A DNA stretch of 62,523 nucleotides, filler included, from Dugesia japonica (lineage: Eukaryota), in the NCBI GenBank assembly GCA_001938525.1. It is 6 parts of 6 records of this genome, joined end to end, with 100 filler letters (N's around TTAATTAATTAA, not from the genome) between each part and the next. Parts side by side here need not be neighbours in the genome. Positions count along the whole stretch, not along the records: positions 1 to 11,718 come from MQRL01627151.1; 5 more parts are not named here. One strand, written 5' to 3'. A program made the position numbers and the translations under genes. Each line of letters starts with the position of its first letter. The stretch's first letter is position 1. Shown piece by piece: positions 1,735 through 45,884 of the stretch. A model generated the notes under the pieces. That model had not been told where the DNA came from and did no database searches. It worked only from the letters and a program-made list of their open reading frames with translations.

Positions 1735-2270
1735 ACCCATTTTACCCTACGTATCATATTTTAATATATTTTACCTTATTAACAATATATTACACAAATT
1801 TTACCCTATTTACCCATATTTTATCCTTTTTATCATATATTCATCATTAACCCCTACTTACCTCTATTTTACCCCTATTTAATCCTAATTTTACCTATAT
1901 TTACCCCTGTTTTATCCTATTTACCCTATTTTATCCTGTTTACCATATATTCATAATTTTAACCCCCATTAACCCCTATTTTACACAATTTTGACCAGTT
2001 TTAATCTATCTTTTACCCGTATTTTTCAAACTTTTGCCCAATTTACTCTATTTTACCCTATTTTCCATAACATTCTATATTTTACCCTATTTTTTCCGAT
2101 TTAGCCTGATTTTACCCGATATTTCCAGTCTGCTCAATTTCCCCATATTTTGTCGGATTTTCCTATATTTTCTTTATATTTATTTCTCGCCATTTCCCGC
2201 GATGTATCACTATTTAGCTATTTTTATCTATATCTACCCTATTTAGCTATATTTTCTCTATTTTCTATTG
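1735..2270. repeat. Degenerate ~9-10 nt minisatellite (TTTTACCCTA-like)
   Basis: Many imperfect copies of tttaccctat, tttacccata and ttttatccta, with a strongly C-rich plus strand. Confidence 0.8.
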
Positions 2271-2499
2271 TGTCTTAATGTACATTTTTACTTCATATTT
2301 TCATAGATTTCACTTCAATAATCTCTAAAATGTGTCATATATTAATAAAGGAAGACAATAAGACTGAGTGAGAGCTAGTATGATATGCATTTTACATAAA
2401 ATTATAAAACTATTTCAGTTTGTTTTAATAGTAATAGATAAAAATAATTTGAAATCGCACAGTAGTCGATAAAAATTATCTGTAAAATGTAAAAAAGAA

Positions 2500-3254
2500 T
2501 AATAAAATACATATTTTTCATTAAAAACGATGTTTTAAAGAAAACTATATGGTGTAAATATAAATATTTTAAATATTCTTTCAGTACAATACGTTTTAGT
2601 AGGTAGATAGTGAAGCACTAGAACAGCTGACCGGTATGCTATCACCACGATGGTCAGCTACATTTAACTAGCTAACCAACCTGTACCTACTAACCCCATT
2701 TTACCTGGTTTACTCATTTTATTTTGCTAAGGTTTGTCTAATTGATATGAGCAATGTTCGAATTGCAATGCGACGACGCATATTTCGAACATGATTAAAA
2801 ATCAGTCTTACATAACTGTGACGTATAATAATTCAATACTAATCAAAACCCTTTAACCTTAATTTTACCATGTCAGATTAGAAGTGATTCTGTGAGGCTC
2901 AAAGTTCCACCGTGATTACATTAAATTAATATTCCTCACACAATATTTAGATCCGAATTCAAAAGCTGTTAATAATATTAGCTTTATAGAGTTTATGAGG
3001 GGGATTTAATTTGATAAATAATATGATAAATAATATAACAAATAAACAGATTATACGTGTTTTTTTTATCTAAATGTGAATTAATTAGAATTCTAGGAAT
3101 GAGCTAAAACCTCTGATCGGCTAACTCTCAAAAGTCTGATTTAGCATATAATAAATTCAAAAAAAGGATTGTGTATATTTCATTGCGATCGGTAAACTAT
3201 CTAGCTTCCTGATTTTAATTCTGATTTTTATAAAGTCTGAATTGATTTTATAAA
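2500..3254 (+). repeat. Dispersed repeat copy A (MITE-like core)
   Basis: Colinear with 5760-6473. Shared blocks include cattaaaaacg.tgttttaaag, ccaacctgtacc, ctgtgagg.tcaaa, gctaactctcaaaagt and gcgatcggtaaactatctagcttcct. Confidence 0.8.
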
Positions 3255-3629
3255 TATTAATCAGACACGTTTGTACTCTGATTCAATATATTTTATGAGT
3301 ACCAAACAAAAAATGTTTTTTGTGAGTTTTATTATTTTGAACGCTGTTATACTATTTTTGACTGTTGGTCTAATATTTTTTACTACTGTCTTGATATTCA
3401 TCTAACGTTATTTTAGTCTGTCCGGGAACAAGAAGATCACCTCCCTTTTCTTAGTAATTCTTGAGTATAATCTCAATTTTAATCTCATAATTCTTCACAG
3501 AAAATCCTTACTTTGAATCTCATTTTAAATAACCAGTTTACTATCAGCTATTCCTAGTTTAATTCTCATTTTTAATCACATCATCTTTCAAAGTATTTCT
3601 TCAATCAATAATCTATTTAAATCTTTTTG

Positions 3630-4140
3630 TGAAAGCGCTTTTGAGTCTAAATCAATGAAAAATTTTGCAGATGAACATGGCATTACTCTCAGGTTTTTGA
3701 GTCCATGTCATCATAACACAAATGGACAAATCGAGAGACAGTTTCGAACTATGCGGGATATGATTAATGCAACGCTTAAAGAAAGGAAAACGTCAGATTG
3801 AGCAGATGTGTTGCCAGAGATAGAATCTACCTTAAATACAACAAAACAGAAAACTATTGGGAAAAGCCCTGCTGAAATCGTATTTGGGAAGAGAATATGC
3901 AGAGAAAAATGGTATGACACCAGTGCCCAAACAGTGCACAGAGAAGAAGAAGAAGAAATATTAACCAAAAGACAATTCGAGATCGATGATGAGGTCTTAG
4001 TGAAAGCTGAAACAAGAACCAAGATCGTTATGAAGGACCCTATAAGATCAAGAAAAAGATTCATGACAGATGTTATATCCTTGAAGATACAAACGGAAAA
4101 AGTCTCGAAAGAAACGTAGAGAAGATAAAAAAAATTCTTA
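3630..4140 (+). mobile_element. Gypsy/Ty3 integrase C-terminal remnant (pseudogene)
   Basis: Translates to AFESKSMKNFADEHGITL..HHNTNGQIERQFRTMRDMINA and GKSPAEIVFG, with a stop and a frameshift; paralogous to ~12770-13280. Confidence 0.9.
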
Positions 4141-4523
4141 AAAAGGGGGATGTGAGCAGTTTTGAAAATCAAGTTGAAATTTTTGTGTGATTGGTGATCT
4201 TATTTTTCAAAATTTTCTGTCAAAAAGAGAGATTAAATTATTGATGACAAATTTAAATAAACAAATATTAGTTTAAGGACAAATTAAAATTATTGAATAA
4301 TAAAGATTAATTTTTTAATAAACAATATTTTTAAAAATAAGCTGAGATTTAATAAATAAAGTTTTAATTTTTAAATTTTAGAAAAGAAGATCACCAATTA
4401 AAACANNNNNNNNNNNNNNNNNNNNNNNNNNNNNNNNNNNNNNNNNAGTTTTGATTTTAAAAAAGTATTGTTATGAATTGGGATTTCGATATTGATAATA
4501 CGAGTTTTCCAAACCCAACTACA
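4141..4523 (+). mobile_element. Polypurine tract plus 3' LTR (~370 bp, TG...CA)
   Basis: AAAAGGGGGA (4141-4150) is followed directly by TGTGAGCAG. The LTR ends ...AACTACA at 4523, and both ends match the related LTR at 13292-13634. Confidence 0.85.
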
Positions 4524-5759
4524 CGTATGTAATACCATTTAAACCATTGTAAATGATCATAAAATTTGGTTTAAGTGCCGAAACACAATAACCCTGTTAT
4601 GTGAGAAAAAAATTATTATTTCAAGAATCAGTTTTTATTAATTGAGTGATTATATTTGAGATATTATAGAAGATTAGAAACCTCAGACGGACCTTTACCT
4701 GAGCTTGGAGCAGATTTAAATGAAAGTTAGAATAAATTTTGTGATTAAACGAGCTTAAGTGTTGGAATCCCCAATAATTTTGTAAAAATTCATACACACA
4801 CCCATACATATGAAAAATTCAAAGATACATTTTTTTGATCAAATCAACCTTCCTCTTTCTTATAAAAATAATTCCAACTCGAAAAAAAATATTTTCGTAA
4901 AAATTTACTACTTACTAACCTTTACACTTAAACCACAAAAAAATAAACCAATAATCCACCAACTCAACCCAAAACCTTTAGGATTATCTTCGTGAACATT
5001 CGATCTTTCCAACAACATCAAATTCAACTAAATCTATCAAAAACTTAACACCAGACCGATTTAGAGAAATAGTGCACGATAAATCATTGCTTGTGATAGT
5101 GGGCTCACATCTTTTACGGTAACTTACACTATCTTTACACTATTAGTTTTTAGGCAATGTATAGGTAGAATTTGGGTCTCACTACCACCATGCAATTTCT
5201 TTTTACACTATATCTTTCCACAACATACACGCGCAATACCATCCATAACCAATACCTCAATACATTTTAAAAAATAAAACAAAAATTCCGAATTAATTAA
5301 AACAAAAAAGAATAAAACTTTTTAATCCAATCAAAAATTCAAAATCCACGATAGCACATATCAAACATCAAACACAGTGTTATGTTTTATTGCTATGGAG
5401 AGCCTGTGCTAGTGCGCTCATATCTACCTATTTCTGTATACTCCTTGAAAATGTGGCNNNNNNNNNNNNNNNNNNNNNNNNNNNNNNNNNNNNNNNATAA
5501 AACATTCAAAAAGAATTTAATGAATAAAAATATGAAGATGATAGGGAACCATCGAAGCATTAAAATTTTATAAAAATAAAAATTTAAATTGATCAAAATA
5601 TATTTAATCAAGTATCACATTGATAGTCTAAATATAATTCCTTTCTGAGATTTCCTTGAAATTCGGGAATCTGCACTGAAATTCCATTATTATATATATT
5701 AGAACCATTGACAATCAGAGTGATTTGATGCCACGAAGCACTAGAATAAATGTAAAAAA

Positions 5760-6473
5760 CAATAGTAAAATATATTTATTCATTAAAAACGGTGTTTTAA
5801 AGAAACCTATATGATGTAAATATAAATATTTTAAATATTCTTTCAATGAAATACGTAAGTAGATANTGCAGCACTGGAACAGCAATCGGTAAGCCCTCCC
5901 CACGGTGGTAAGCCACATTTGACTAGCCGACCAACCTGTACCCACTAACCTTATTTTTATCTGACCATCTCACTTGTTCCAACTTAGTTTATTTTACCTG
6001 GCGACCACAGCTTTGTGGTTCTGTGAGGTTCAAATTTCCCGGTGATTACATTAAATTAAAAATCCTCAGACAATTATTTAAATCCGACTCCAAAAGCTCT
6101 TAATTTACGAGCGTGTTAGTAGTATTAGCTTTATAGAGTTTGTGATAGGCATTTAATTTGATAAATAATAATAAATAATAATGTGGTATATATAAATATT
6201 AAAATAAAATACAAACTCTGAACAAAAATGAAAGTTTATACAACTTAAATATTACAAATTGAATTTTAACAAATAGAGGTTATACGTGTTGCTTAATCTC
6301 ATTATGAAGTAATCAGAATTCAAGCAATGAGCAAGAAACCTCCGATAGGCTAACTCTCAAAAGTTTGATATAGTCTCTAATAAAATAAAAAAAGATTTGT
6401 ATTGCGATCGGTAAACTATCTAGCTTCCTAATTTTAATTATGATTTTTATAAAGTTTAAATTAATTTTATAAA
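5760..6473 (+). repeat. Dispersed repeat copy B
   Basis: Direct, diverged copy of 2500-3254. Confidence 0.8.
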
Positions 6474-6894
6474 GAGGAACTACATAGAAAACTGCGCAAA
6501 GATAAACAAAGGCTGTCTTTCAAGCTGGAAAATCCTCCCCAAGACTTTAAATCTTGGTTTGGCCAGCGGATCGCTGTAAAAAATAACAAAAAAGGAAGAC
6601 ACTAAGAAGAAATGGTGCGAAGAACAAACCCTAAACGGGGACCCCTATGAATTTAATTATCCACAATGGACTTACTGTCGTTGACATCATTTATAACAGA
6701 TAAATCAAATTCAGAGCAATTAGCTTGTCCATTGTGAAATCGCCAGTTCTTTGTAGACCATGCAATGCAGATTCTTATGCTGGCAAGTGCAAACTTCCTT
6801 ATAACATTGACCAACGTATTTCAGGATAGACTCATTTTCAACACAGTGGGTTAAAACTATTATATCGACTTTGTTCTTCAAGGAGACAGCTGAA

Positions 6895-7450
6895 AAGAAA
6901 TTGTGCTCAGAGCACCCCTCAGATTCTCCCACACTCTTTTGAAGATTGTGAACCAGGTGAGAATTTTGAGCCCAATTCGAAAGTTGAGAGGCAAGAAAAG
7001 CCATGAAAAACTTGTAAAGACAAACCAGCAGAGCAATCGGTCACCAAGAAGAGACAAGGTGATAAGACTCAGAAATGCCAGGCTTTGGAATCATAAAGGT
7101 TTTTTAAACTCGCCAACTCTCAGGAGTGATTCCACTTCAAAGTATGTTGGAAAAGATTTTTTCGTATCAATAGACAATTCGGATCCGCCTATTTGAGATC
7201 CTGGTAAGTAATTTTGTTGATACCAGGAGCAGAAACAGACAAATTAAGGATAATGTGTCTTATGGTAGCTGCATCAGGACAAACAAACTCAAAGGTTTCA
7301 TCACTGAACTCGATAAGGGGGCATAGTTTCTAATCAGTGAATCGACCATCTACAGATTTGGAATGAAAGTAAGATTCAGGATTAGCCTGAGAAGGAAAAC
7401 AATCAACAGTAACCTCGTTGGTTATCAGCTTGAAAACTGCCTTTTGTGAG
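6895..7450 (-). pseudogene. Non-LTR reverse transcriptase, domains 0-2 only
   Basis: SAPG at 7222-7233, then IPKPG, W*PI and LYK, and EGCSEH at 6903-6920. It has several stops and a frameshift, and I see no YADD motif downstream. Confidence 0.85.
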
Positions 7451-7763
7451 AATTTGAATCAATCTCTTAGATTCAGATCTATCTCAACGCGTTTGTTGTT
7501 TTTTCCCTCGCCATCGATTTTAAAATTAATATTTTTAGATTTAATATTGCAGACAGAGTGAACAAAGCTGTAGAAAGAATCCACAGAAGTGTCACTACTG
7601 TCTATTGATTTTAATAAAATATTAAATTTAAGTTCTTTTTCTGTTTCCGAGATTTTATTAGACTGAGTGCATTCTTATTTTTTTAAAATTTAGTTTAATT
7701 TTAGAAAAATTATTAAATTTAGATTTAATTAGACCAGCATCTACTCTTCGCAAAAGATTGAAG

Positions 7764-8200
7764 TTAGAGAGAGTGAATGTAACCACAAACTAGGAAGCTA
7801 CTTACCCCATTGTTTTTCTGTAAGGTGGGAATGTTAAAAAGTAATTGTATTAGGCAGATGTCTTTATTAGGGCAGAATTCAGACATGCAATTATGTAGCC
7901 TAATAATGTCAGCTTCTAAAACAACATCACATTTAAGAACACCAAAGTCAAGAAGAAAAGAAATCTTTTTAACGACGTTAAAAACAAAAAGGACCCATCT
8001 CTTACCNNNNNNNNNNNNNNNNNNNNNNATAATCTCACGATTCTTTAAAAAATTATAGGACACTATTTCTGAAATATAGTTGTTATCCTCATCAATACAA
8101 GCCAAAGAAAATATCGGATCCACAATAAGATGATTATTATTAGAAATCAGACCACTAGCAAAGTCAACAAGTTTGTTGATACCAGTGATTTGCGTAACAG
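7764..8200 (-). pseudogene. Ulp1-like domain 2, catalytic residues absent
   Basis: RWVLFVFNVVKKISFLLD aligns to HWILFVFDRNAGRAFNID of domain 1, and QKNNGVSS aligns to QQNIYDCG. His is replaced by Arg and Cys by Ser. Confidence 0.65.
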
Positions 8201-8339
8201 TGATAAGAGAGTTAAGACATGAAGAAACCGGTTGGCCTTCACCAAATTCATAAGGTTTCTTAGATATAATTCCAAGCTCCTAAACAAATTCCTTAACTTT
8301 CCGAATCTCCAAATTAAATAGAGGATCCAAATTGGAAAC

Positions 8340-8770
8340 TTTAAGAGCATGGCTCTTAAAAGGGCCACAATCATAAATATTCTGCTGGGTTTCTCTTTTG
8401 ATTATCACCTCATCAGAGAGCACAACAGTTTCATCAATGAATGCATTAAGCTACCTAGTCATATGCATTCCATACTCAGCAGCCATATCTGGCATAAATG
8501 CTACTTTAAGTGGATCAATATTGAAGGCCCTACCAGCATTTCTATCAAAAACAAAGAGAATCCAGTGCTGGTTCAATAGATTCATTGCGGAGTCAATTGT
8601 GCTGGATTTTGAAAAATCGCATTCCAGCGAGAGAAAAGTGCCACTCTTAGCCAACACAATCTGGGTGATACAACGATCAATAAAAAATAACTCTGGATCA
8701 CAAAAGTGGACATTTATGAAGATGTTGATTTGCACATCACTAAACCAACTCTTGCTAAGATTGAGAACAT
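8340..8770 (-). pseudogene. Ulp1/SENP-like (C48) cysteine protease domain 1 of the non-LTR element
   Basis: His at 8565-8567 (HW), Asp (FD / IDPL) and QQNIYDCG with Cys at 8367-8369; an in-frame TAG at 8451-8453 interrupts the domain. Confidence 0.85.
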
Positions 8771-10571
8771 AAATTGGGTTTTCCACAATTGCTAATGGTG
8801 AACCAATAGTGGCTGCAACTGTGGACAATAGCCGCCAGGTAGGCGCTTCCTTACTCTGAGAATAAAATATTTTATTAGGACTTTTAACAGCATCAGAGAA
8901 GTTAACATTCTCTCTACAAACAGCAGAGGGCAAAGTATTTTGGAGCTTACAAACAGAAATAGGCTTTAGAGAATCAGTCTCTACAACAGAGTTTCTCCTA
9001 CGTTTGTGTCTAAAAAGGTAAGAGTTGCGTTTAATCGGACTTTTAATCGGAAGTTTTCTAGCTGCGTTGGGTATAACAGGCGCAGATATATCAACAAAAT
9101 GTTTATCAGACAAGGTAGGAGAGAGAGGATAAGAATTCTCAACAACAAAGTCCCGAGGCAAGTCAAAATCTATCATTTGAGCTATTCTGTGATTCAGAAA
9201 TCGATAGGTCAACAAATGCCTCATCATGAGCTAAATTAGAAGCTTTTGAAGCAATAGATGTTTCTGATTTGTCAATTATTTTATGTTCAAAATTAAAATT
9301 AATTTGTGGAATATGACAATCAGAGTTATTCCCCGTGCTTCCAACAGAATACCCCTCGTTAGATTTGGTTTTTATCAATAACAAGTTTTTGTAAAAGCTA
9401 CAAAAAGGATTACTGGAATTACAATCAAGTAAAACTGATTTTTGTGTATTTGTAACACTATCATTATTTGGAGATTTTTGTTGAGAATTATCAGAGTCTT
9501 GCTTCTTATCAATTAAGTTATTAGCCAAATTTTTAATAATAGAATTATTGTCGAAAGTTTTAAAATTATCAAGAATAATTTTAGATTTCGGGTTATTTCC
9601 ATTATTAGTTTTAGCTTCAATATTATTGTTATTGATATTAACTTTGTTATTATCAAAGCCATTATTCTTATTCTTATTATTAAAATTAGAACCAATAGAG
9701 TTAAAATCCCATTTAGCAATTTCATTAATAGAATTTAAATTTTTAATATTATCAGTGGAATTTTTAACTATATTTAATTTGTCAAAATCATTTGAAATAA
9801 TTTTAAGTTTCAGTAATTTCCTATTATTATTATTCCTAATATTATTATTAATAAAATTTGAATTATTAGGATTAGGGTTAATATTAGTAATTTAATTAAC
9901 AGTAGAATTAAATGATTTTTTCACATTTTTTGAATTATTAATGTTGGCCTTTTTTTAGACACATTATTCTTTGTTTGAATAATATCAAAAGCGCTATTAT
10001 TTTGAATATTAATTAATTCTGAATTAATTTTTGAATGACCTTTTAACTGCTTACTCTTATTAAACTAAGCAGTACCATGGCCATAAAATAACTCATTACC
10101 ATATTTCAATTTTGANNNNNNNNNNNNNNNNNNNNNNNNNNNNNNNNNNNNNNNNNNNNNNNNNNNNNNNNNNNNNNNNNNNNNNNNNNNNNNNNNNNNN
10201 NNNNNNNNNNNNNNNNNNNNNNNNNNNNNNNNNNNNNNNNNNNNNNNAATCCACTAGTTAAATTCCAATAATAATCAATTCTAAATATTTCAAGAGGCTA
10301 GATACATATTAAATAATAAATAAGATCAATAGTGGTATGAAATTGTTTAAATTGATTTTATGCTCAATCTGAAAAATTTCAATTCTAATTATAAATTTTA
10401 GAGAATTATAAAGCTGGTACAGTTAAATATAAATAATTATTAAACATTAATTAAAATTACTAAAAATAAACTAATTAAAAATAGCAATTTCATATACAAA
10501 TATCAATTAAAAATTTTAANNNNNNNNNNNNNNNNNNNNNNNNNNNNNNNNNNNNNNNNNNNNNNNNNNNN

Positions 10572-11625
10572 CCCTGCTACAATCAATAAACAAAGTAATT
10601 TAATTTGAAAATTAATCAAAATCATGGACCTGAAAAACATGAATTGCAGCTGATGAACCTAAGAAATGAGCTCAAAACGAAGGCAGAGAAAAGTTCAAAA
10701 ATCGACATAAAAATATTTGATGAGGTTGGTCGGTCTGCTACTCGTGATTTTTTAATTGTCATGATAACCATTGCCATAGATACGGATACCTCAGATACAA
10801 ATAACGTAATAAGTTTCCGCGCACCATTTCCCTTAGTTACTGCGCGAAATGAAAAATCCACTTTCGCGCCCTTTCCATGACAACGATCACGGTTCATATA
10901 CAGCTGCCATGACAACGCTTTCAATTTTTAAGTTGTGTATAGTTCAAATGATTACATTATCTTAATTAATTTTGGTTCTTTTTTCATGATTATTTGTTTT
11001 GTTTTGTTAATTTTTTAATGATACAATAACTAAGTGGCTTTATTAATGAAATAAATTGGCGGAAACATTTCCACCAACTTTGTGTTTGTGAAATTTTCTC
11101 AAATTTCTTATCCCCAAGTAGCCAGAAGAATGGCTTATTCGAAAGCATCAACATACCCTCTCATACCTAATTCACTTAATGAATTCATTGATTTGTTAGC
11201 AAGAAATGAAATTCTCAATATTCATTTTCAAAAATTAGTAGTGATTGGTGATGATATAATTAGTGATATAATCTTGTTTTTTCCCCAAGATATGCTCAAT
11301 GAAATAACAAATGTTGAATCTGTTGGTTACGATGGAACTTTTTTATAGTTCCAAAGATTTTTATGCAGCTATTTGTTATTTGCGTTTTAATTGGTGCTCG
11401 CTTTGTCCCAACATTTTTTACATTAATGACTAATAGACAGAAACGTTGCTATAAAGCTGTTTTTGAAAAGATGTTGGAAATCGTCCCTCAATTTTCGCCT
11501 GCTCTTGCAGTTGGTGATTTTGAAAGAGCATCAGAAGCTGCATGGAGAGAGACTTTTCTAAATATCACAATAAGAGGGTGCTTGTATCATTTTAAACAAT
11601 CCGTAAACTATATATACTCATTAAA
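10572..11625 (+). mobile_element. MULE (Mutator-like) transposase remnant with a ~350-bp internal insertion
   Basis: NHGPE..., YDGTF, MQLF, FVPTFFTLMTNRQKRCY, GDFERA and IRGCLYHFKQ (CxxH) motifs. Coding is interrupted at ~10740-11095. Confidence 0.85.
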
Positions 11626-11762
11626 CACAATACATAAATTAAAATTGTTGGGTTGATAGGCTTTTGATGTTGTTTTAATCTTTCGTTATTTCTGAATATG
11701 TCTTTCTGTCTGGGGGATNNNNNNNNNNNNNNNNNNNNNNNNNNNNNNNNNNNNNNNNNNNN

Positions 11763-11774
11763 TTAATTAATTAA
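11763..11774. other. Artificial scaffold linker TTAATTAATTAA in a 100-nt spacer (also 20023-20034, 31850-31861, 44082-44093, 53020-53031)
   Basis: Identical palindromic 12-mer with stops in all six frames, each time flanked by 44 N on both sides. Confidence 0.95.
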
Positions 11775-11818
11775 NNNNNNNNNNNNNNNNNNNNNNNNNN
11801 NNNNNNNNNNNNNNNNNN

Positions 11819-13291
11819 ACATGAAAATTGAATGGGCGAATGAATTAGAAGAAGTTTTTAATGAAATAAAAGAAGCACTAATGATGTCTCCAATAGTAGG
11901 TTTTCCAGATATAAATAGAGGATTTATTTTGGACACGGATGCAAGTTTCGATACGATTGGGATAGTACCCTCTCAAAAAGAAAACAATGGGCAAGAGTAA
12001 TTGCATGAGAAAGAATATTTTATTACGCGGAAAGAATTGCTCGCAATTTACTACTTTTTTATTCATTTCAAACATTACTTATATGGAAAAAGTGATCACT
12101 TTTATGCTAAATACCAAGAAGCCAATCACAGTATAGTTTCAAACCTGAATTAATTATTTGAGCAGTTTAGATATAACATTGGAATATAGAAAAGGATCGC
12201 TTCATACAAATGCGGATATGTTGTCAAGTAGTGAATGCGGTACAAGTGCACAATATTTAATATCACATAAAGATCCAAAAAGTGGAAAATTAAAAACAAG
12301 GATGTTAAATACAGTAGATATTCAAGAAAAACAAGGCAACTTTGGGGAGAATGGTGAAGGAACATGGATCCTGATGATAAAGTAGAAAAAGTTATAATTA
12401 GGATAAGCCATCTTTTGTGTGATGCTGGAGCAGAAAAAGTAGCAGCGTATGTGAAGCATAAATATAACGCGAAACATTTGTGGAGCAAAGTACAAGAGGC
12501 TGTGCGAAGCAGTATAACATACCAGAAAGCTAAAGTGTTGACAACAAAAACGAATGAAGAAACAAAAAAGACTCAGCAAGCCGAAATGTTTGAACTGTTA
12601 TTTGTATATGTGTGTGGACCACTTCCGGAGACAAGACGTCGAAAAAAATATGTTTTCGGTATAATAGAGCAATGTAGTAAGTATGTAGCAAGATGAAGAG
12701 ACTATATGGAAACAATATTTGAGAAGTGAATATTAAAGTTCGGGTGTCCGAGATAAATTAAAGTTGATTGTGGAAGAGCATTTGAGTCTAAATTAATGAA
12801 AGATATTGCAGCTGAACATGGAATTACCCTCAAGTTCTCGAATCTTTATCATCATAACTCAAATGGACAAATTGAGAGGCAATTTAGGACAATGCGAGAT
12901 ATGATAAATGCGACACTTAAAGAAAAGAAAACCTCAGATTGGGCTGATGTGTTACCAGAGATAGAATTAACCTTGAATGTTAAACAAAACAGAAGACCGC
13001 CGGGATAAGCCTTGCTGAAATCGTATTTGGAAAGAGAATAAGCAGAGAAAAAAGGTACGAAACAGATCCTCAAAGATAGCACAAAGATGAAGATTTAAAG
13101 ATATTGACCAGAGGACAATTCAAGGTTTGTGATGAGGTCTTAGTGAAAGTTCAAACAAGAACCAAGATTTTTTTGAATGACGTTATAAGAGCAAAGTAAA
13201 GGCACACGACAGACGTTACATCCTTGAAGATATAAACTGGAAAAGCCTCGAAAGAAACAGAGAAGATCAAAACAATTCTTAAAAATGCGGA
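11819..13291 (+). mobile_element. Gypsy/Ty3 pol remnant (RNase H plus integrase)
   Basis: RNase H motifs LDTDASFDTIG, ITRKELLAIYYF, HFKHYLYGK and HTNADMLS; integrase motifs SHLLCDAG.EK, GPLPET..KYVFGIIE, VDCGRAFES and HNSNGQIERQFRT; multiple stops. Confidence 0.92.
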
Positions 13292-13634
13292 TGAGTATGT
13301 TTTAAAAAGTGAGTTGAAATTATTGTGGGGTTGGTGACCGTTTTCTTGAAATCTATTTTGAAAAATATTTAAATTGAAATAAAAAATCAAATGACTGATA
13401 AGTAATTGTTTTAAATTTTGAAATTAAATTTTAATAAATAAATTGAAAATTTATTTTAAAATCAGAATAAAAAATCAAATGACTTTAAATAGATTTTAAG
13501 AAACGATCACCAATTTAAAACAGGAATTTAATTTGTTTAAAAACACAATTAGTGTTGTTATAGTTTTTTTGAAATAAATTTTATGAAGTTGAATTTTGAT
13601 GTTGATAATCCGAGTTCTCAAAACTCATCTAACA
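13292..13634 (+). mobile_element. 3' LTR of the Gypsy remnant (TG...CA)
   Basis: Follows a degenerate PPT (aaaaatgcgga) and is homologous at both ends to 4151-4523. Confidence 0.75.
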
Positions 13635-15199
13635 AAGGGAAAGGCATGAAAAAATGAATTTGCTTGGGCATCTGAAATCTTTCCTGGTGCAGGTAAAGAT
13701 GTTAAACACTTTATCTAGTGTGTTGTTTTTTTACCATTCAAGGATTGGAAATAGAATCAAGATCTTCCAATAAAAACCATAAAGTCACGTCCCTAGAGTT
13801 TCATAGATAGTGTATTATTCATTATGAAAAATTATCTGTTAGTTATTAATATATTTGCAAAAGTCCAAAACGAGTTTGTTAGCTCAAGACAGAAAGTTAA
13901 TAGGGACATTAAGCATTACTTTCCTAATACAGCAAATTATACCGATGTATGAAAGAAAGGTAAATGAATAGTGACAAACAATTTGGTAGAGTCACCAGCA
14001 TACTTGTTTTCTAAAGTATTTCTCTGATCAGCCAATGGCTGTTATCCAAGAGTATATGATGTCCATGTTATGCGTGTTTTATGTAGAAATATTTTTGTTT
14101 ATACATTGTTTGATTTTAATTATTTTTTATCAGACCACCATTTCAACATAATTAAATAATATCATCACCATTATTATTAATAAAAATACAGGATACTTGA
14201 CTTACTATTGTCAATATTTGCCTGCCGTAATTCATATAAAACATAAGCGTCGTGTTTTCAATAGAATTAGTACTTTCTATACAATGTGTGCAGAAGTAAA
14301 AAGGATCATTAGCAACATTAATGGATTCTATTGGCAAGTAGAATCTAATTAATATATGTATTCCCTCCACAACGTAATCGACGTTTGTAATTAATTATGG
14401 AAATAATTAGTATTATTTTATGAAATTTTTAAGGATTTATTACGAATTTGATTTATCTATTGACTATCTAAGACATTATCACCTTTAATTTGAAAATAAA
14501 TTGGAAATAAAATGAATCTTATTATAGTTATAATAATGAAATTATATATATATATATATTGTTAGAATTGTTATTTCTCCAATTTAAAAGAACTTGTTGC
14601 ATTAAAATAATCTAAAATTAAGTACCAAAATAATATTCAAAAAGCTATCACAACTATTAAAATATTTAAACAAAAATATTCTTCTGAGGATTTATTTTGT
14701 CATCTTCTGGTATTTCAATAAAAATTTAGGAAATAGAAAATTATCCTAAAATAATTTTTGATTTCAAATCATTAATTTTAAAATTATTTATTTGTTATTT
14801 ATAACTCTTAGATTTTATATTTTTTATTTCATTTAAATATCACATTGAAACTCATTTTAATTTCATTTATTATTTAGAAATTTTAAATTTGCAATCACAT
14901 CCACTGGCAAATATTCGTTTAGCTCACTTAATACATTGTCTATATTTTATTTTATAGGCCTCTAATAAATAAAATTTTACTTAGATGTATTGCTGCCATC
15001 AGAATAAGCACGTGAAACTCGTTTTTATGAAATTACTTAATATTTGGTTAAATAAATAGACGAAATACTGGAGAAATGCTAAAATTAAGAAATATTCGCT
15101 TAAGTGCACTCATGTTTTATTTTTTGAAAATAATCACAAATACAAATTTGAAAATTTTAATAATGTGTGTTTTCTCTGACACTTAAATTAAAAATTCTT

Positions 15200-27883: not shown

Positions 27884-27937
27884 CTGGATAAAAAAGAAAA
27901 TTTATTTGTAAATATCAATAAATTATAATTTAATTAC

Positions 27938-28321
27938 AATAAAAGACTCTATGTCATTGTAATTTTCTGGTCTCATCCATGTTACCCTAATAGAATCTTT
28001 TTCACCCAAACAATTAAGATTTCTGACATTTCTTTCGTTGGTTTCCGATTTCAGCACTAGTGCAGTTTGAACATTACTCCATTCGGCTGATCGATCATCG
28101 CGAATAATAGATTTCATTCGGATAAAATATTGATTGGGATAAATTTCATTTATAACTGCAGTTGTAAACGGGCCCACAGATTTTTTGAAATTGATAGCGT
28201 CGTCTGAAAAATCTTTATTTGTCGAAACTTGAATATGGAACCCAATCACTTGACTTTGTAAATCAACTATCAAATTGGATTTAGCTGGGAAATCCCAAGA
28301 CACTTTGATTTGATATTCATT
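27938..28321 (-). CDS. Upstream FN3 exon of the same RPTP-like gene (5' end in a gap)
   Basis: IKVSWDFP..YPNQYFIRMKS..EWS and VRNLNC..DSIRVTWMRP. A GTAATT donor and a 54-nt phase-0 intron (27884-27937) join it in frame to the next exon. Confidence 0.82.
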
Positions 28322-29046
28322 NNNNNNNNNNNNNNNNNNNNNNNNNNNNNNNNNNNNNNNNNGAAAATAATATCAAAATAAAAATAATCTGAATACTTTT
28401 ATTAACAAACAACAATTGAAATTTAATTTATATTATTTTATTTAGATTATTGTATCGAATATATGAAAAAGAGAAACTTAAAGATTAAAGATAAAATTTT
28501 TGGTACTTAATAATACTTAATTAATTAATTAGTTTGATTTTTTTGTATAAATAGCTTTTTTATGTAAATGTATTATTTTATTCATTTACTTAATTGTTAT
28601 TCCAAAACCTGATCAAAAATAGATTTAAGATTCAAATTAAATTGGATTTGTATACGACGCAAAAAAATTTGGATATTATTGTTATAAAAGAAAATAATCC
28701 GTTTGTATAATATTTGGTATAGTATATGTTAGTTGGGTTTGGAAAACTCGTCGTATTATCAATAATAAAATCTGAATTCATAACAATACTTTNNNNNNNN
28801 NNNNNNNNNNNNNNNNNNNNNNNNNNNNNNNNNNNNNNNNNNNNNNNNNNNNNNNNNNNNNNNNNNNNNNNNNNNNNNNNNNNNNNNNNNNNNNNNNNNN
28901 NNNNNNNNNNNNNNNNNNNNNNNNNNNNNNNNNNNNNNNNNNNNNNNNNNNNNNNNNNNNNNNNNNNNNNNNNNNNNNNNNNNNNNNNNNNNNNNNNNNN
29001 NNNNNNNNNNNNNNNNNNNNNNNNNNNNNNNNNNNNNNNNNNNNNN

Positions 29047-37085: not shown

Positions 37086-39432
37086 TGGTAACCGAAAAGA
37101 ACAGAACAAGGAAAGAGCAACATGAAAAAACAGAAAAGAAAAAAAACAGAACATGGAAGAAACAGAACACTGTAGAAACAGAACATGGAAAAACAGAACA
37201 TGTAATAAACAGAACTATTTAAAAAAGAAGAACTCATATTTAGATTTAAATAAGGTATGACGTAAATTATGGAATTTAAAGTATTTTATTTTATTATTTT
37301 GCATGTGTTCTATTGCTTTTATTCCATATGTACAGAATAGAATATTGCGCACATGGAAAATTGCTCAAAGTTTAATTTATTAATTTAGAAAATTATTAAA
37401 TATGGAAAATACCAATGAAAAATTATTTGAATTAAAGACTTTGTTGTTAATATAGTTTAAAGAATTTTTGTTTATTTTATAATTTAAATTTAACAAATGA
37501 CCAATTTCCTATATCTTAAATTCTTTTTTTACAATTATAATTATAATTCTAAAATTTTTAAACAGAAAAATTCAGAAATTATAAAAATTCAATTTATTTT
37601 CAATTCAATAATAGCCATTATGACATTAAAGAAATGCGCTTCACTTTTATTTATTTCCATGTTAAAACTATGAAACAATTGAAATAATATTTTTCTCTAT
37701 ATATTTTAATATTTTATATGTACAGAAAAAGATTAAAATTCTAATCACATCAAATTAATCGAAAAACAAAATAAACAGAATGAAAATCGAAAAAACAAAA
37801 AATAAAATATAACATTAACTTGTTGTGCCAATTTAGTAATTAAATTAGTAATTATATTAGTAATTAAAACTAAATCCAATATTTAAAACTATTGTCATTA
37901 AAAATGAATAATGAATAAGAACAATAATTGATGTAGAAACTTTGATACTTGTAGCTTCTTTTGCATAAGAATAAGCAGTTAAAAATATTAGAAAAATTCA
38001 AAAGATACTAATAATATTTAATACATGAACTTTTTAAATTTAGAACTAAAATCAAAGTTTGGTATTTATTTGAAAAGTTATATTTGATAATTGATATTAT
38101 TTTACATGACACAGGCAGTGATGATCCCGATAGAATTCTAGTAATTAGAAGTGTAGATTTGCTTAAAGAATTAAACAAAGAGGTTATTTTAGGAGATGGA
38201 ACTTTTGATAAAGCACCAAACATTTTTTACCAACTTTATACATGGAACCATTAAGTTTTAAATTCATTTCCATACTGTGTTTATTTTCTTTTAAAAAAGA
38301 AGAATTTTGAAACATACAATCGAATGTTTGCTATTCTGCAACAATTAATACCGAATATGGCACCAGATAAAGTTCTTTTGGATTTTAAAAAAGCCTGTAT
38401 GTCTGCTGCTCAGTTCGCTTTCACACTGGCAGAAGTAAACGGATGTTATTTCTCCCTTACTCAAAATTTAATTAGAAAAATTAACAAAGTTGGCTTGAAA
38501 AGTGTGTTTGAATCGGACATTAACATGAGACTAAAACTAGAATCTCTTTCCGCTCTATCATTTGTTCCATTAGAAGATGTAAGAAATATATTTGCTGAAC
38601 TTGTTGCGACATTCCCAAATGATGAGAATTATAATGAAATTATCACTTATTTTTTTCAACTTATATCGAAGGAGCTGCAGGAAGATTACCTCAATTTCTC
38701 ATTATGATTTGAAACCACCATGAAGTTGTTTTCAAAAAATGTCCAAAAACTACAAACTGTTGTGAAGGTTTTTATAATGCATTGAATTCTATGTTTCACT
38801 GTAGTCATCTCAGTATATAGAATTTATAAAATGGTTTAAGACGAGATATAGCTTGCCAGCAATTATTATTAGCAAATGCTGATGCAGGTTCCTCAGAAAT
38901 AAGAATTTAAAATATGAAACACTCAGTAACCAAGTGGCAATAGTTGTGTAAAGGTATCAATATGAAAAAAACAAGATAGAGTTTTTACGCTGAATGGTCA
39001 ATCTTCAATAAATTATTGATCTTATTCATTATTAATTTTGAATGACCATAGTCTTATACATTGGATTTAGTTTTAATTACTAAATTGGCATAAAAAGTTA
39101 ATGCTACATTCTATTTTTTGTTTTTTTTGATTTTTATTCTGTTTACTTTGTTTTTCGATTAGTTTGATGTGATTTTAATTTTAATCCCTTTCTCTATTTT
39201 GTACCTATGGCATAACAGCAATAGAAAACATGCAAAATAATAAAAAATAAAATAATTTAAATGCCATAATTTACGTCATACCTTATTTAAATATAAATAT
39301 GAGTTCTTGTTTTTTAATAGTTATGTTTATTCCATGTTCTGTTATTTCTGTGTTCGGTTTTTTTCCTGTTCTGTTTTTTCATGTTGTACTTTCCTTGTTC
39401 TGTTTTTTCTTGTTCTATTTTTACATAGAACC
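37086..39432 (+). mobile_element. MULE with long TIRs, internally deleted transposase and a nested insertion
   Basis: TIRs of ~370 bp rich in AACAGAAC repeats (37086-37340 plus 37720-37880 versus 39060-39432). Transposase motifs GDGTFDKAPNIFYQLYT, DKVLLDF, GCYF and PKTTNCCEGF at ~38100-39000. Confidence 0.92.
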
Positions 39433-41923
39433 GTTAACTTTGTACAGTCACTTCTTACTATTGAGTTAAATGACACCAAATTTGAGACCATAGAGGTTAG
39501 GTATGCAGAGAAAATTGAGCGCCGAAAATTCGAAATTTTTCGTGACAAAACCTCTTTTATTTTATCGAGGACCAACTTTGGCGATTTTAGGTTTATATAT
39601 TCTGACTAAGCAGAATATTCTCTATCCAATAGACTATTTGTTGACTAATTTTTAGAAAAAAAGAAATGTTTTTTTAGAAAATTCTGTGAAAAATACTGGG
39701 AAACCGAAAATGATCGCCGTAAAATTCTGAATCGATTGATGTAAAAATATCCATATGTTAAAAAATAAAGAAATTATTTTCGAAAATTTGGGTTGTTTAT
39801 CCGGATTCCATAAAAAATTTCATATATAAATTTAAAATTTTCATATTATTTAAACAAATTGGGTTTATTAGAAAAGAGTCCGTTCTTCTCATTCAGAAAA
39901 GAGTCCGTCATGATAAAAAATATTTATTTCACAAAACGTTAATAAATTCCGGCTTTTAATAATTATCTGCTTCTCTTTGATTTTTGATCTTCTGCCAAGC
40001 ACTCTGAATATTCAAAAAACTAATTTATTAAAATTAATTTCTAATTAATGTCTAAAATTAAAACTTAAAATATTCATTTACTTATCCTGACAGGGTTGTT
40101 CACCCGGATTCTAATAAAGAATCCCATACAAAATTTTCTCCAACTAAAAAGCTTGAAAAATATTGCCGCTTAAAAAGCCTAAATTTTCGAAAATAATTCG
40201 GTCAACTTTTCAAAATACGATTAAAAGTTATGTAATTGCACATAAACTTTGCTCGCTAACTAAAAAGCTTGAAAAATTTAAAAACAATTAATCCTATTAA
40301 AAGAATTCAAGAATCAGGATTGAGCATTAAGTCTTGAGACGACGTCAATTCTCGGTGAATTGTTATAGATAAACTTCTAAAAAATATATTAAATATTAAT
40401 CTTATTAAACTATTTACAAAGTATCAATGTATAAAAAGTTGGATATTCGAGAGAAAACATAAAATAATGATAAAAATTCAAAAATAAATTAAATAAGATT
40501 ATCAGTAGATTATGTAGATTAATGTAGATTATCAGGTTCCGTGTAAGAGTAATTGGGGTATTTAATAGAACTATTTAATTTGAATGTAACTTCATTACAA
40601 GAAATGACCTCTTTGACAGAATCTACAATACTCTACTCCACGGTTTGGATATTCTTCATTAACAGCATGACTGATATTAAAATGAAAATAAATTTCAGCA
40701 TATTGTCATGTCTTATTTATTAAAAACAGACAAACATATTAATTAAACAAAGTAATTGTATAATATATATTATATGACAACATCCAAAATACAATCTTAT
40801 GTCATTTTGCACAAAATTTGTATTTAATTTGGCTTTAACATGTTTGTTTGAATAAATATATATCACAACTTCTACTTTTATGGATAATTTAAAAACTTAT
40901 TCTTCACTATATTTTAATTCTTTTATCTTTGGTAATTTTACAAATATTTGATAATTATTTGATAATATTTGATAATTATTTGAGATATTCTGAATAAATC
41001 AGAAATTAATTCGAATGTTATACGACAANACTGTAAATTTCTTTTTAATGGCTAATTTAAACAGAAGTTCATTGTTTTATTATTATCAAATTATTTATTA
41101 TTATTTTTTATTAACAAAACAATATTTAATAANNNNNNNNNNNNNNNNNNNNNNNNNNNNNNNNNNNNNNNNNNNNNNNNNNATTTGATAATTATTTGAG
41201 ATATTCTGAATAAATCAGAAATTAATTCGAATGTTATACGACAAAACTGTAAATTTCTTTTTAATGGCTAATTNAAACAGAAGTTCATTGTTTTATTATT
41301 ATCAAATTATTTATTATTATTTTTTATTAACAAAACAATATTTAATAATTAATATAAAATTTTAAAATGTACATTTTAAACAAAACAAAACAGTAAAATT
41401 ATTAATTCAAAAAATTATATGATGGTAACCATGACAATTAAATTATGTGAATGGAGGTAAATTTTTAAATGAATAAATTAGTTTCAATAACAGTTAATTA
41501 AATAGATCTTAAATGTTAAAATAATTTTGTTAAAGAAAAACATGTTTCTTTTCTCGATGATTATTATTTGACGCTTTTATCATTTGATTGTATTTATATG
41601 AGCTGGGATGTTTTTTCAACTATAAATTACAATGAGGCACGAAACGTATTCAAGTGTCTGTTAGTACCTGATGTAATTTACTATTTATTGTAATAAAAAT
41701 CGTTTCTTTCGTGATTGAAACGTTGGATAGATTCATAACTAATTTTTTGTAATTATTGATAAATTAATTTTTAATTAATTTATTTATTCTAATCATATTC
41801 ATATTAAAGGAAATTGTTTCTTTTAAATCTGAATGATGTAAGATGCGGAAATTATTTCGTAATAGAATTAAAATTTGTTTGAATAAATAATTTGATATGA
41901 TAACATATAAGTGATTAGTAAAA

Positions 41924-43726
41924 ATGTGTGAAAGACAAACAAGAATCGCAATTATTAATAAAGATAAATGTAAGCCAAAGAAATGCAATTTAGAATGCAT
42001 GAAAAATTGTCCAGTTAACGGAACTGGAAAACGCTGTATTGTTGTTACACCCGAAGATAAATTGGCAAAACTATCAGAAAATATGTGTATTGGTTGTGGT
42101 ATTTGTATAAAAAAATGTCCATTTGAAGCTATTCAGATGGTTAATATTCCATCAAATCTAGAAAAAGAAACAATTTATAGATATCAATGTAATTCTTTCA
42201 AATTGCATCGATTACCAATGCCACGACCAGGAGAAGTGTTGGGATTAGTTGGTAGGAATGGTATCGGTAAAACTACTACAATAAAAATTTTGGCTGGAAA
42301 ATTGAAACCTAATTTTGGACATTATAACGTCGAACCAGATTGGAAACAAGTATTGAATTATTTTCGTGGTTCAGACTTACAAAATTATTTTAAAGCAATT
42401 AGTCAAAATAAATTGACAGTTGTAGTTAAACCACAAAACGTTGAAGATGTCATTAAACAGATTTCCGATAAAATGGTTTCTGAAATTTTAACGCGTAAAA
42501 GTAGAAAAGATAATTTGAACACAATAATTAAAAATCTCAGTTTGACTCATCTTTTATCAAGGAAATGTGAGGAATTATCTGGTGGTGAATTACAAAGATT
42601 TTGCATTGCTGCATGTTGTTTAAGTGATGCTGGAGCTTATTTCTTTGATGAGCCGAGCTCATATTTAGATGTGAAACAACGTTTAGATGCCGCATCAACA
42701 ATACGAGACTTATTAACAGAAAAGAATTATATTATGGCAATTGAACATGATTTATCGGTATTGGATTATTTATCAGATTTCATCTGTTGTTTATATGGAG
42801 CACCAGGTCTTTATGGGGTTGTTACTATGCCTTTTTCTGTTCGAGAAGGAATCAATATCTTTCTTGACGGTTATATTCCAACTGAAAATATAAGATTTAG
42901 AGAAAATGCTTTAGTTTTCCGTGTAGCAGAATCAGCAAAAGATGAAGTGATTGAACGTCATTCAAAAGTCAGATATCCAAAGATGACAAAAACTTATAAA
43001 GATTTTCAATTAAATATTGAAAAGGGTCAATTTACAGATTCAGAAATCGTTGTTTTCTTAGGAGAAAATGGAACGGGTAAAACGACATTCATTAAAGTTT
43101 TAGCTGGACTAACTCAAGCTGATGACGATAGCAAATTACCTCGATTAAATGTTTCACACAAACCTCAAAGTATGCTTGGAAAATCAACTAAAACCGTTCA
43201 AAATCTCTTGTTGGAAAAGATTTGTGAATCATGTATTAGTCCTCAATTTCAAACAGAAGTATTAAAACCAATGAGGATTGAAGAGCTCCAAGATAAAGAA
43301 CTTCGGAAATTGACCGGAGGTGAACTACAACGAGTTGCTATTACTATATGCTTAGGTAAAAAAGCTGATGTATATCTAATTGATGAACCGTCAGCTCATC
43401 TTGATTCCGAAATGCGTATTGTGACCGCTAGAGTTATTAAAAGATTCATTTTACATGAAAAGAAAACTGCATTTGTTGTTGAACACGATTTAATTGTAGC
43501 AACGTATTTAGCAGACAAGGTAATCGTATTCGAAGGTTGTGCTGGTGAAAATGCAATTGCTAGAACTCCACAATCTCTATTGTCTGGAATGAACAATTTC
43601 TTAAAATCTTTGGAAATTACTTTTCGGCGTGATCAAATTAGTTTCCGACCTCGAATTAATAAAAAGAATTCAGTAAAAGACCATGAACAGAAATTGTCGA
43701 ACAATTATTTTTATTTGGAAAATTAA
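41924..43726 (+). CDS. ABCE1: ATP-binding cassette subfamily E member 1 (RLI1, ribosome recycling factor), single coding exon, 600 aa
   Basis: Fe-S cysteines CKPKKC..EC..NCP and [12 protein letters not shown]; NBD1 [21 protein letters not shown]; NBD2 [21 protein letters not shown]; C-terminal hinge RRD..RPRINK. Confidence 0.98.
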
Positions 43727-45099
43727 ATTTCATAATTCATTATAAATAATCGATAATGTTTTTCATCAGATATTTAATGAATTTTTCAATTATTTCAAGT
43801 TATTTACTTAGCTATAATTCCTAGAACAATTTTCAAAATTTTACTAATACATTTATGATAATTATTTTAATTCTTTTTATTGAATTATTTTATTGGTTTA
43901 ATTAATAATTTTATTTTAATAATTTTATTTTAGTTTTTCAATTTTACAATTGCAATTATTGCGAGAATAATTGTTGGACTTAACCATTGATCGTTTTTGA
44001 GATTTCATTCAAATAATAGCTTCGGTCAAATTAAATTNNNNNNNNNNNNNNNNNNNNNNNNNNNNNNNNNNNNNNNNNNNNTTAATTAATTAANNNNNNN
44101 NNNNNNNNNNNNNNNNNNNNNNNNNNNNNNNNNNNNNTTTAACATTCGATAATTGACTTTAATATTAAGAAATCTCTTTTACAATAATAAGTTTGAAAGT
44201 TAGAATAGAGTTAAAATCCTCTAGTTTGGAAGTTTTAAAACTCTATTATTAACTTTATTTGTAAAATGATGAAACGAATGATTTAGAAAAAAGAACGAAA
44301 AACATTTTAAAAATCGAAAATCGGTCTTAAAAAGATGAGATTTCAGTTTTTTAATTTTTGCAAAATAACTGCAGTTNNNNNNNNNNNNNNNNNNNNNNNN
44401 NNNNNNNNNNNNNNNNNNNNNNNNNNTTTAACATTCGATAATTGACTTTAATATTAAGAAATCTCTTTTACAATAATAAGTTTGAAAGTTAGAATAGAGT
44501 CAAAATCCTCTAGTTTGGAAGTTTTAAAACTCTATTATTAACTTTATTTGTAAAATGATGCAACGAATGATTTAGAAAAATGAACGAAAATCATTTTAAA
44601 AATCGAAAATCGGTCTTAAAAAGATGAGATTTCAGTTTTTTAATTTTTGCAAAATAACTGCAGTTTTTGGTTTTCGGTAAACCACGGTGACAAACCCTAT
44701 TTCTATTATTTCTTTTAGACCTTTTAAATACTGTTTAATTAGAACAATATTAAATGGTAGCAACATTATGAAGAAATAATAGAAATAAATAACAGCGAAA
44801 TTCGTTGAAATGAAAAAGAGTTTGTATTTGTATGTATTCATTTGGAAATAAATACGAAATAAAAATATAATACATTTAGAAAATAAAAATGCAGTGCTCT
44901 ATTTAAAAAAACCTTGAAAAATTTGGACTTACATCTAATCCCACAAGTATGTAAAAAAATTTCCTTTTATCCAAGAATCCTTAAAATATCTAGGTTAAAC
45001 TTTTGTAAAAAATTTGTTTAAACTTTTCGTTGCTTCAACCGTATATACTCTTTACTATCGTGATAATTCGTACTGTTTCCTGCTCAACACGATCGTTTT

Positions 45100-45884
45100 A
45101 CGTTTGGTACCTAATACCTATGAGCACGTTTAATTCGATAGAAGCGATGTTGCGCTTTTGAAAAAAGTAAAATCGGTAATCCCGAATTACCAAAGCATAT
45201 TTCTAGTTCATTAAATATGTTACGCCCTGTTATTTTGCCTTTATATGTCAGGACATCCAATAATTCTTCTGTTACATTCAGACCTTTGTCAACTCCTCTA
45301 ATAAATACCACACAGTGATAGGTATCGGTTATGCATATACTTTCCTCAAGAGCAATTGACCATGATTCAAATTGTTTTGCAATATGAACCAGTTGCTGAT
45401 AAACACTTTTGGTTAATTCGCTAATTCTACTGGAAATAATATTTGCAGACAAACGTATCCCATGAAACAACTTTTTTTTCAGGGCAAAATGTTTCACTAG
45501 CTTTAAGAAAACAATCTTTTACAAATTGTCCTTCGGTTAATGGTTGCGACGATTTTAACATCATCTCACTGATGACAAAACTTGCTCTTACGAATTCTTC
45601 ACAGAATTAGTTCATCATATTGAAAACGTTTCGTTGCTTTTCAATTTATTCTTTTAGATGTAGAACTTTTTAATCGTGGATTTTTACAGGTATTGTTTCA
45701 TATTGTTCTTTCTACATTGTAACATAATTTCTCTGTACGTTATATTCTTTTGGAACATAAATGATTTGTATACAAATTAGATATTGTATTTTTTCCTTCA
45801 TTTTTGTCACAAAATATAGATTTTCCCATTTTTCATTAAACCTCCGTTTTCATCTATAATTCTCCTCTTCCTTGGAAATGACAT
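45100..45884 (-). mobile_element. hAT (Charlie/SPIN-like) transposase remnant
   Basis: Minus-strand MSFPRKRRIIDEN..., zinc-finger remnant with VPKEYNVQRNY, then IRLSANIISSRISEL, WSIALEES..TD..VFIRGVD..VTEELL and KITGRNIF. Confidence 0.85.

Follow-up and report, generated by a model that had tools for sequence, protein, structure and literature searches.

The window, by which we mean the whole stretch of 62,523 nt (filler included) that was analysed, is AT-rich eukaryotic DNA with a GC content of 16-34% per 2 kb and numerous runs of N. On its minus strand lies one dead, decayed copy of a non-LTR element, and no second copy of this element was found in the window. Two successive domains resembling C48 proteases share a single minus-strand frame of this copy that runs from 9230 to 7764, as the initial annotation had proposed, and two TAG stops (8451-8453 and 8280-8282) fall within it. 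The TAA at 7764-7766 is a stop codon within domain 2. The parts of the copy are given here in the order of the element, with the basis for each in parentheses.

9163..9891, minus strand: Asn-rich open frame of 242 codons upstream of the protease frame (open frame)
8754..9230, minus strand: N-terminal extension, in frame with domain 1 (open frame)
8283..8753, minus strand: domain 1, Ulp1/SENP-like (clan CE, C48) protease (motif codons, model and profile)
8235..8246, minus strand: linker Gly motif FGEG, candidate autoprocessing site (position of the conserved GG/GxG)
about 7767..8210, minus strand: domain 2, putative C48-fold pseudo-protease (codons, fold and profile)
about 7693..7728, minus strand: probable last helix of domain 2, in a shifted frame (by-eye comparison with relatives)
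7135..7674, minus strand: pre-RT helical region and RT domain 0 (SAPG..ITY), with stops (hmmsearch iE 3e-12, alignment)
6894..7160, minus strand: RT domains 1-2 (SW.PIALL, G..EHN), frameshifted, with 3 stops (tblastn, iE 1e-30)
6728..6835, minus strand: possible C-terminal ORF tail, weak (tail profile E 0.14, best match window-wide)

Inspection of the codons bore out what had been claimed for the catalytic residues of both domains. Domain 1 carries the motif WFSD, a His at 8565-8567 (HW), an Asp at 8514-8516 (DP), a Gln at 8382-8384, and a Cys at 8367-8369 (QQNIYDCGP); the first of the two TAG codons interrupts this domain and the second follows it. In domain 2, Arg (7998-8000, RW) replaces the His and Ser (AGT, 7800-7802) replaces the Cys, and both Asp 7947-7949 and Gln 7818-7820 are retained. 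The nucleophile region of this domain reads QKNNGVSSFLVCGY when breaks are read as X. A 22-nt run of N at 8007-8028 masks eight codons of domain 2 and directly precedes its RW.

Beyond the proteases, RT domains 1-2 of the window copy are 37-48% identical to the five intact ORFs described below (tblastn). Only RT domains 0-2 (7674-6894) were recovered from this copy; neither RT domains 3-7 nor the CCHC finger or endonuclease could be located in it. The possible tail at 6835-6728 hints at an internally deleted copy, but the match is weak, with pairwise shuffle support (4/500) for two of five relatives and none for the other three. At the opposite end, 8754-9891 (minus strand) is probably the 5' part of the element, and neither an informative Pfam match nor a zinc-finger pattern was found in this region. 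A scan of 2000-14000 revealed no rRNA or snRNA gene, including SL, U2, and 28S, near this old copy with its unmapped ends (both Rfam matches fell below their gathering scores), and no tRNA gene was found across the window. The 3' flank of the copy at 5748-6473 resembles 2485-3254, located 3.2 kb away, at 79-83% in three pieces, and this likeness reflects either an old duplication or another repeat.

Taken alone, the window sequence is weak evidence for tandem C48 domains. Pfam assigned no C48 domain to the window protein, the sole match being RickCE_cat (E 0.02), and a phmmer search of PDB with this protein returned OtDUB only (E 0.15). The two domains of the window copy are not significantly similar by BLASTP (E 0.037), and word-index searches with the window protein yielded 0 of 2322 and 0 of 2192 candidates. 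In the HMMER comparison with Peptidase_C48 that the initial annotation had put forward, the window copy had no Pfam C48 match, although profiles built from its relatives match both domains.

Domain order among the relatives

Of the 17 relatives, 15 came from a phmmer search of 1.84 billion representatives (E<=1e-3) and the other two, both full ORFs, from a profile search. Because the search query contained both domains, tandem relatives were favoured and single-domain relatives are under-sampled. A Candida L1-like protein (P0024) matched in its RT only and was dropped as unrelated. Five relatives are full length (P0011, P0012, P0013, P0022, and P0023), with stop-free ORFs of 1266-1537 aa, and all five carry C48 (PF02902) and RVT_1 along with YADD, CCHC, and D-x(n)-D-x-K motifs. 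We take the full ORFs to include a CCHC finger and a restriction-like endonuclease on the basis of motif patterns. Of the solved structures, R2 gives the best match to the RT of P0012 (E 1.4e-50; LINE-1, 3e-26), and the family appears to consist of RLE-type non-LTR retrotransposons whose RT is closest to R2-like RTs.

PF02902 scored above its cut-off in 14 of the 17 relatives scanned. A second unit is reached in 11 of the 17 and is dead in every one of these 11. All five full ORFs have dead units, and three of them have two. The order shown for ORFs of this family is a predicted active Ulp1-like protease, a GG/GxG linker, one or two putative pseudo-proteases, RT, a CCHC finger, and a restriction-like endonuclease. 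What the initial annotation had described as a two-domain layout holds in that the dead copy is family-wide, but some families carry three units. Because Pfam gives a single C48 stretch in each of the five full ORFs, dead units are easily overlooked, and the layout may go unrecognised in existing repeat libraries.

The three-unit form (active, middle dead, last dead) is seen in P0013, P0022, and P0023. P0017 has an active unit and a middle-type unit, after which its sequence ends.

Active and dead protease units

The active units keep their catalytic residues without exception (His 13/13, Asp 14/14, Gln 14/14, Cys 14/14). Domain 1 of the window copy scored 100.6 bits on an active-unit profile built without the window sequence. 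Its model matches SENP8/NEDP1 (Z 13.5, rmsd 3.6 over 165 residues), Ulp1 (Z 13.2), and adenain (Z 8.3), and Foldseek matches reach E values as low as 1.8e-5. The AlphaFold pLDDT is 62-70 across the domains, with a value of 70 for the domain 2 model. By its His-Asp-Cys order, its oxyanion Gln, and its modelled Ulp1/SENP fold, domain 1 is assigned to Peptidase C48 of clan CE and is predicted to be proteolytic.

On profiles that lack window rows, domain 2 of the window copy scored 14.4 bits with the active units and 53.3 bits with the dead units. The scores of the window domains were matched by none of 500 shuffles, 452-464 of which were reported, the best at 9.1 bits. The active-unit and last-unit profiles, again without window rows, align to each other at 99.1% in HHalign (E 7.8e-19). 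Among known folds, the domain 2 model matches SENP3 (Z 12.4, rmsd 2.9 over 136 residues) and Ulp1 (Z 11.6), with SENP3, SENP5, Ulp1, and SENP8 spanning Z 12.4-11.5, and we take all of its top 28 matches to be members of clan CE. Foldseek returned nothing at E<=1e-3 for domain 2 (best 0.025); it puts these same proteins at the top, and the matches listed are all of clan CE. Searches of ESM Atlas with the dead unit of either P0008 or P0022 returned C48 clusters at 0.95, with a Pfam share of just 17% in the top cluster for one of the two. These clusters and the SENP3 match agree with the earlier view that domain 2 folds as C48.

Domain 2 appears to be a pseudo-enzyme that has the C48 fold but not the catalytic His and Cys. 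Among the last units, the Cys position is occupied by Ser in nine, Thr in one, and Cys in none (n=10), and the oxyanion Gln is kept in two of 10. His is kept in five of 11 and is otherwise Arg (2), Lys (3), or Gly (1). Of the two catalytic losses originally noted, replacement of the Cys by Ser or Thr is therefore invariant, but the His is lost in just six of the 11. The stop-free relative P0008 also shows RW and Thr in its dead unit.

A different sequence, G-S-G-[LF]-F-S-N, replaces the catalytic loop in the last units of P0011, P0013, P0015, P0022, and P0023. At the other triad positions, these units have His in four of five and Asn in five of five.

The invariance of Ser or Thr (10/10 last units) and the retention of His in nearly half of these units (5/11) might be expected if domain 2 were a Ser-nucleophile hydrolase or a self-cleaving module in some lineages, and P0012 has His-Asp-Ser in register. 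We consider this very improbable, given that His has become Arg, Lys, or Gly in six of 11 last units, including that of the window, and that the oxyanion Gln persists in only two of 10. Moreover, Ulp1 is inactivated by a Cys-to-Ser change, according to the available portion of the source (PMC3216068).

Units were aligned without P0007, P0014, and the short unit-1 pieces of P0016 and P0021, and three units shorter than 120 aa (P0012_u1, P0015_u1, and P0016_last) were left out of the tree. The resulting tree of 26 rows places active units apart from dead ones (99/97). Together with the loss of Cys in 10 of 10 last units, this split supports the original proposal that the family duplicated the domain and kept a dead copy. 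On this tree, the active/dead duplication is shown to predate the sampled families. A duplication specific to the window copy was rejected, in that grouping its two domains gave a p-AU of 0.006.

Middle units form their own clade (99/95), which adjoins the last units of one subfamily (94/90). They have weak direct similarity to active units (35%, E 4e-4) versus clear similarity to last units (96%, E 1.8e-9), and their catalytic columns are poorly aligned. The middle units appear to have arisen by a second duplication of the dead domain.

Could domain 2 have lost its catalytic residues through decay of the window copy, or not be a C48 domain at all? The copy does carry stops and frameshifts, and a direct Pfam C48 match is missing. 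We hold this to be extremely improbable, and it is refuted by the same losses in stop-free relatives, the tree (99/97), the rejected grouping (p-AU 0.006), and the fold match (Z 12.4). As the initial annotation had supposed, the losses in domain 2 are not a product of post-insertion decay, since intact relatives also lack the Cys in this domain.

Among P0011, P0013, P0022, and P0023, identities are 24-37% for last units, 25-39% for active units, and 50-53% for RT, and the last dead unit is shown to be conserved as strongly as the active unit in one subfamily of these aligned sequences. When P0012 is compared with the others, dead units are 7-12% identical and active units are 28-34% identical. 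From the values for P0012 versus those within the subfamily, we infer constraint within subfamilies and a shift of surface between them. These comparisons are indirect evidence of selection. We consider an architecture with a pseudo-protease maintained by selection almost certain, even though dead units diverge faster between subfamilies than active units do, and the Ser or Thr at the helix start may be retained for structure alone.

The linker motif and possible roles of the units

In all 13 proteins that extend far enough, GG or GxG occurs 38-49 residues past the catalytic Cys, compared to none of 11 equivalent windows after dead units, for a pattern that was chosen after the sequences had been viewed. 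Outside this count are three proteins whose sequence stops short (P0018, P0019, and P0020) and two without the Cys motif (P0007 and P0014). The cleavage consensus for adenovirus protease is (M/I/L)XGG-X or (M/I/L)XGX-G, as given in the available part of its source (PMC7464072). Seven of the 13 linkers fit this adenain consensus, versus 0.3% of 8810 background windows and 0 of 2000 within-linker shuffles, and because the 13 proteins are related, these linker counts are not independent trials. The strict consensus is missed by the other six, including the window copy, whose FGEG keeps GxG and lacks M/I/L at P4. GG alone is present in eight of 13 linkers, and 44 of 2000 shuffles were as high, which is a mild enrichment.

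We regard the Gly motif as a newly recognised candidate autoprocessing site, and we see the case for cleavage at the linker as evenly balanced. Glycine-rich hinges are common in linkers, which weighs against cleavage. Polyprotein processing had been one of the functions offered in the initial annotation, and to this extent the linker motif lends it support at the level of sequence.

Domain 1 would then act as a leader protease and cleave the polyprotein directly downstream of itself, at the Gly motif, by analogy with clan CE viral proteases. Cleavage would free a deconjugase domain, perhaps one that targets silencing dependent on SUMO, NEDD8, or ubiquitin. The Cys-to-Ser domain would remain as the N-terminus of the RT-endonuclease and serve as a non-catalytic interaction module. 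We give equal chances of being right or wrong to this scheme, in which a leader autoprotease/deconjugase would be released from an RT that retains the pseudo-protease. The viral enzyme adenain (adenovirus protease, clan CE) shares its fold with domain 1 (Z 8.3), its consensus matches seven of 13 linkers, and it has a dual deconjugase/processing role in the portion of the literature at hand (PMC7464072). Adenain differs from the proteins of this family in that it stands alone as a viral enzyme, uses a peptide cofactor, and has no tandem dead copy.

The Gly motif might instead be a hinge, so that the protein does not cleave itself and its active and dead domains remain tethered, forming a deconjugase with additional sites for Ubl binding. 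An enzyme of this type would use chain avidity or proximal-site reading, and would strip SUMO or ubiquitin off proteins on the RNP or at the site of insertion. Consistent with such tethering, the models lie nearest in fold to SENP8, SENP3/5, and Ulp1, and not to viral processing proteases, six of 13 linkers miss the strict consensus, and the second duplication of a dead unit (middle clade 99/95) suits avidity. However, the Gly motif is found after none of the 11 dead units, though those joints need hinges too, and hydrophobic P4 residues are enriched above linker shuffles. We judge a tethered deconjugase to be somewhat unlikely.

Under the leader protease scheme, the likeliest ligand of the pseudo-protease would be a ubiquitin-like modifier or a modified protein. 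One position in the dead units, which we take to match D451 in Ulp1 numbering, is acidic in eight of 11 last units, and the window copy is without that acid. As for the SUMO-tunnel Trp residues, last units lack the first in 11 of 11 cases and the second in five of 11. The engineered Ulp1 C580S is a SUMO trap, and its binding requires D451, as far as the available text of the source goes (PMC3216068). Given the D451-like acid in eight of 11 versus the loss of the first tunnel Trp, Ubl binding by the dead unit, such as the SUMO/NEDD8 decoy role offered in the initial annotation, is plausible by analogy and yet doubtful. The natural dead units share with this trap the Cys-to-Ser change at the nucleophile of the same fold, but unlike Ulp1 C580S they are without tunnel Trp residues and often without His. 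A complex prediction for P0008 that paired its domain 1 and linker with its domain 2 scored 0.02 without an alignment, and carries no weight either way.

Extended to its full scope, the leader protease scheme would have a clan CE enzyme self-process a retrotransposon protein as in DNA viruses, with the freed deSUMOylase or deubiquitylase countering silencing. One or two natural Cys-to-Ser traps for SUMO or another Ubl, carried on the RT-endonuclease, would steer or shield it at modified chromatin, where R2-like elements have zinc fingers. This extended scenario is unlikely as a whole.

It is also conceivable that the dead unit no longer binds Ubls and sits at the N-terminus of the RT, in the zinc-finger position of R2/Utopia, as a domain for structure or for protein/RNA interaction. 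Such a role would be compatible with linker cleavage. A simple pattern search over the initial 700 residues of each of the five full ORFs, whose N-termini may be incomplete, gave no C2H2/CCHC match; in addition, the conserved columns of last units are mostly hydrophobic or core, and the tunnel Trp residues are gone. However, the D451-like acid is retained in eight of 11, and most dead units are near neutral or acidic (pI 4.5-9.4). Because of this net charge, nucleic-acid binding by the dead units is not indicated. A purely structural or interaction domain seems quite unlikely to us.

Known systems and other features of the window

NeSL/Utopia, Ginger, and Mutator elements repeatedly carry Ulp1-like domains, for which the available portions of the literature offer no more than suggestions of a role (PMC4640811, PMC2836005). 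For NeSL elements of nematodes and for Utopia-1_TSP, which belongs to the NeSL clade, one Ulp1-like protease domain at the N-terminus is described (PMC4640811), which bears on the earlier question of whether the two-domain layout is standard for known elements. A pseudo-protease, a linker cleavage site, and a three-unit form are absent from the descriptions of these elements in the part of that source at hand. The present family likewise has an N-terminal Ulp1-like protease, and from its sequence it appears to work like a Ulp1-bearing RLE element. Utopia generally bears one to three N-terminal zinc fingers according to the same partial source (PMC4640811), unlike this family, in which an N-terminal zinc-finger pattern is absent from five of five full ORFs. 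Ginger1, Mutator, and Helitron DNA transposons carry Ulp1/OTU domains of unproven role; Ginger1 has OTU or Ulp1 at its C-terminus and differs further in being a DNA transposon without a tandem active/dead pair, to judge from the available part of the report (PMC2836005).

The active/dead protease layout is real and family-wide, and its self-cleavage site is a candidate. We know of no non-LTR retrotransposon for which self-processing has been demonstrated. The R5/LIN lineage of planarians is presumably a plausible home for this RLE element, which would be related to NeSL and lies in an AT-rich, animal-like genome, and the window copy is without a flanking rRNA or tRNA target gene. Planarian R5/LIN elements are placed in the NeSL clade, and a protease for them, which the initial annotation had taken as established for R5, goes unmentioned in the available text (PMC4640811). 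A partial literature search turned up no description of a retrotransposon whose protease is tandem or dead, nor of a protease in R5, and the tandem layout may exist unannotated in R5, NeSL, or Repbase; a protease passage was absent from PMC13580325 and PMC11203168.

The family offers a testable handle on the function of such domains: some of its ORFs are intact, the candidate site of self-cleavage keeps a fixed distance from the catalytic Cys, and active and dead units form a pair with a natural Cys-to-Ser change. A tethered Ubl reader, if true, would be a new route to insertion targeting or to escape from SUMO-dependent silencing.

Elsewhere in the window, broken integrase-core fragments with about 80% mutual identity lie at 3529-4119 and 12358-13263 on the plus strand (repeats D8/D10; rve_3 E about 0.004). 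MULE transposase fragments occupy 11055-11656 and 38255-38707, also on the plus strand (PF10551, E 9.6e-10 and 2.2e-5). Minus-strand frames at 27923-28372 and 45111-45518 resemble what we take to be fibronectin type III repeats and a hAT-type transposase, respectively, and neither has a Pfam match at E 0.01. An intronless open frame of 603 codons for ABCE1/RLI1 at 41915-43726 (plus strand) may represent a retrogene or a gene that is natively without introns, and scores 855 bits against mammalian structures and 804 against yeast. Near-identical short duplications flank 50-nt N gaps at 40967-41348, 44094-44665, 50637-51402, and 52458-52771, and are likely assembly artefacts.
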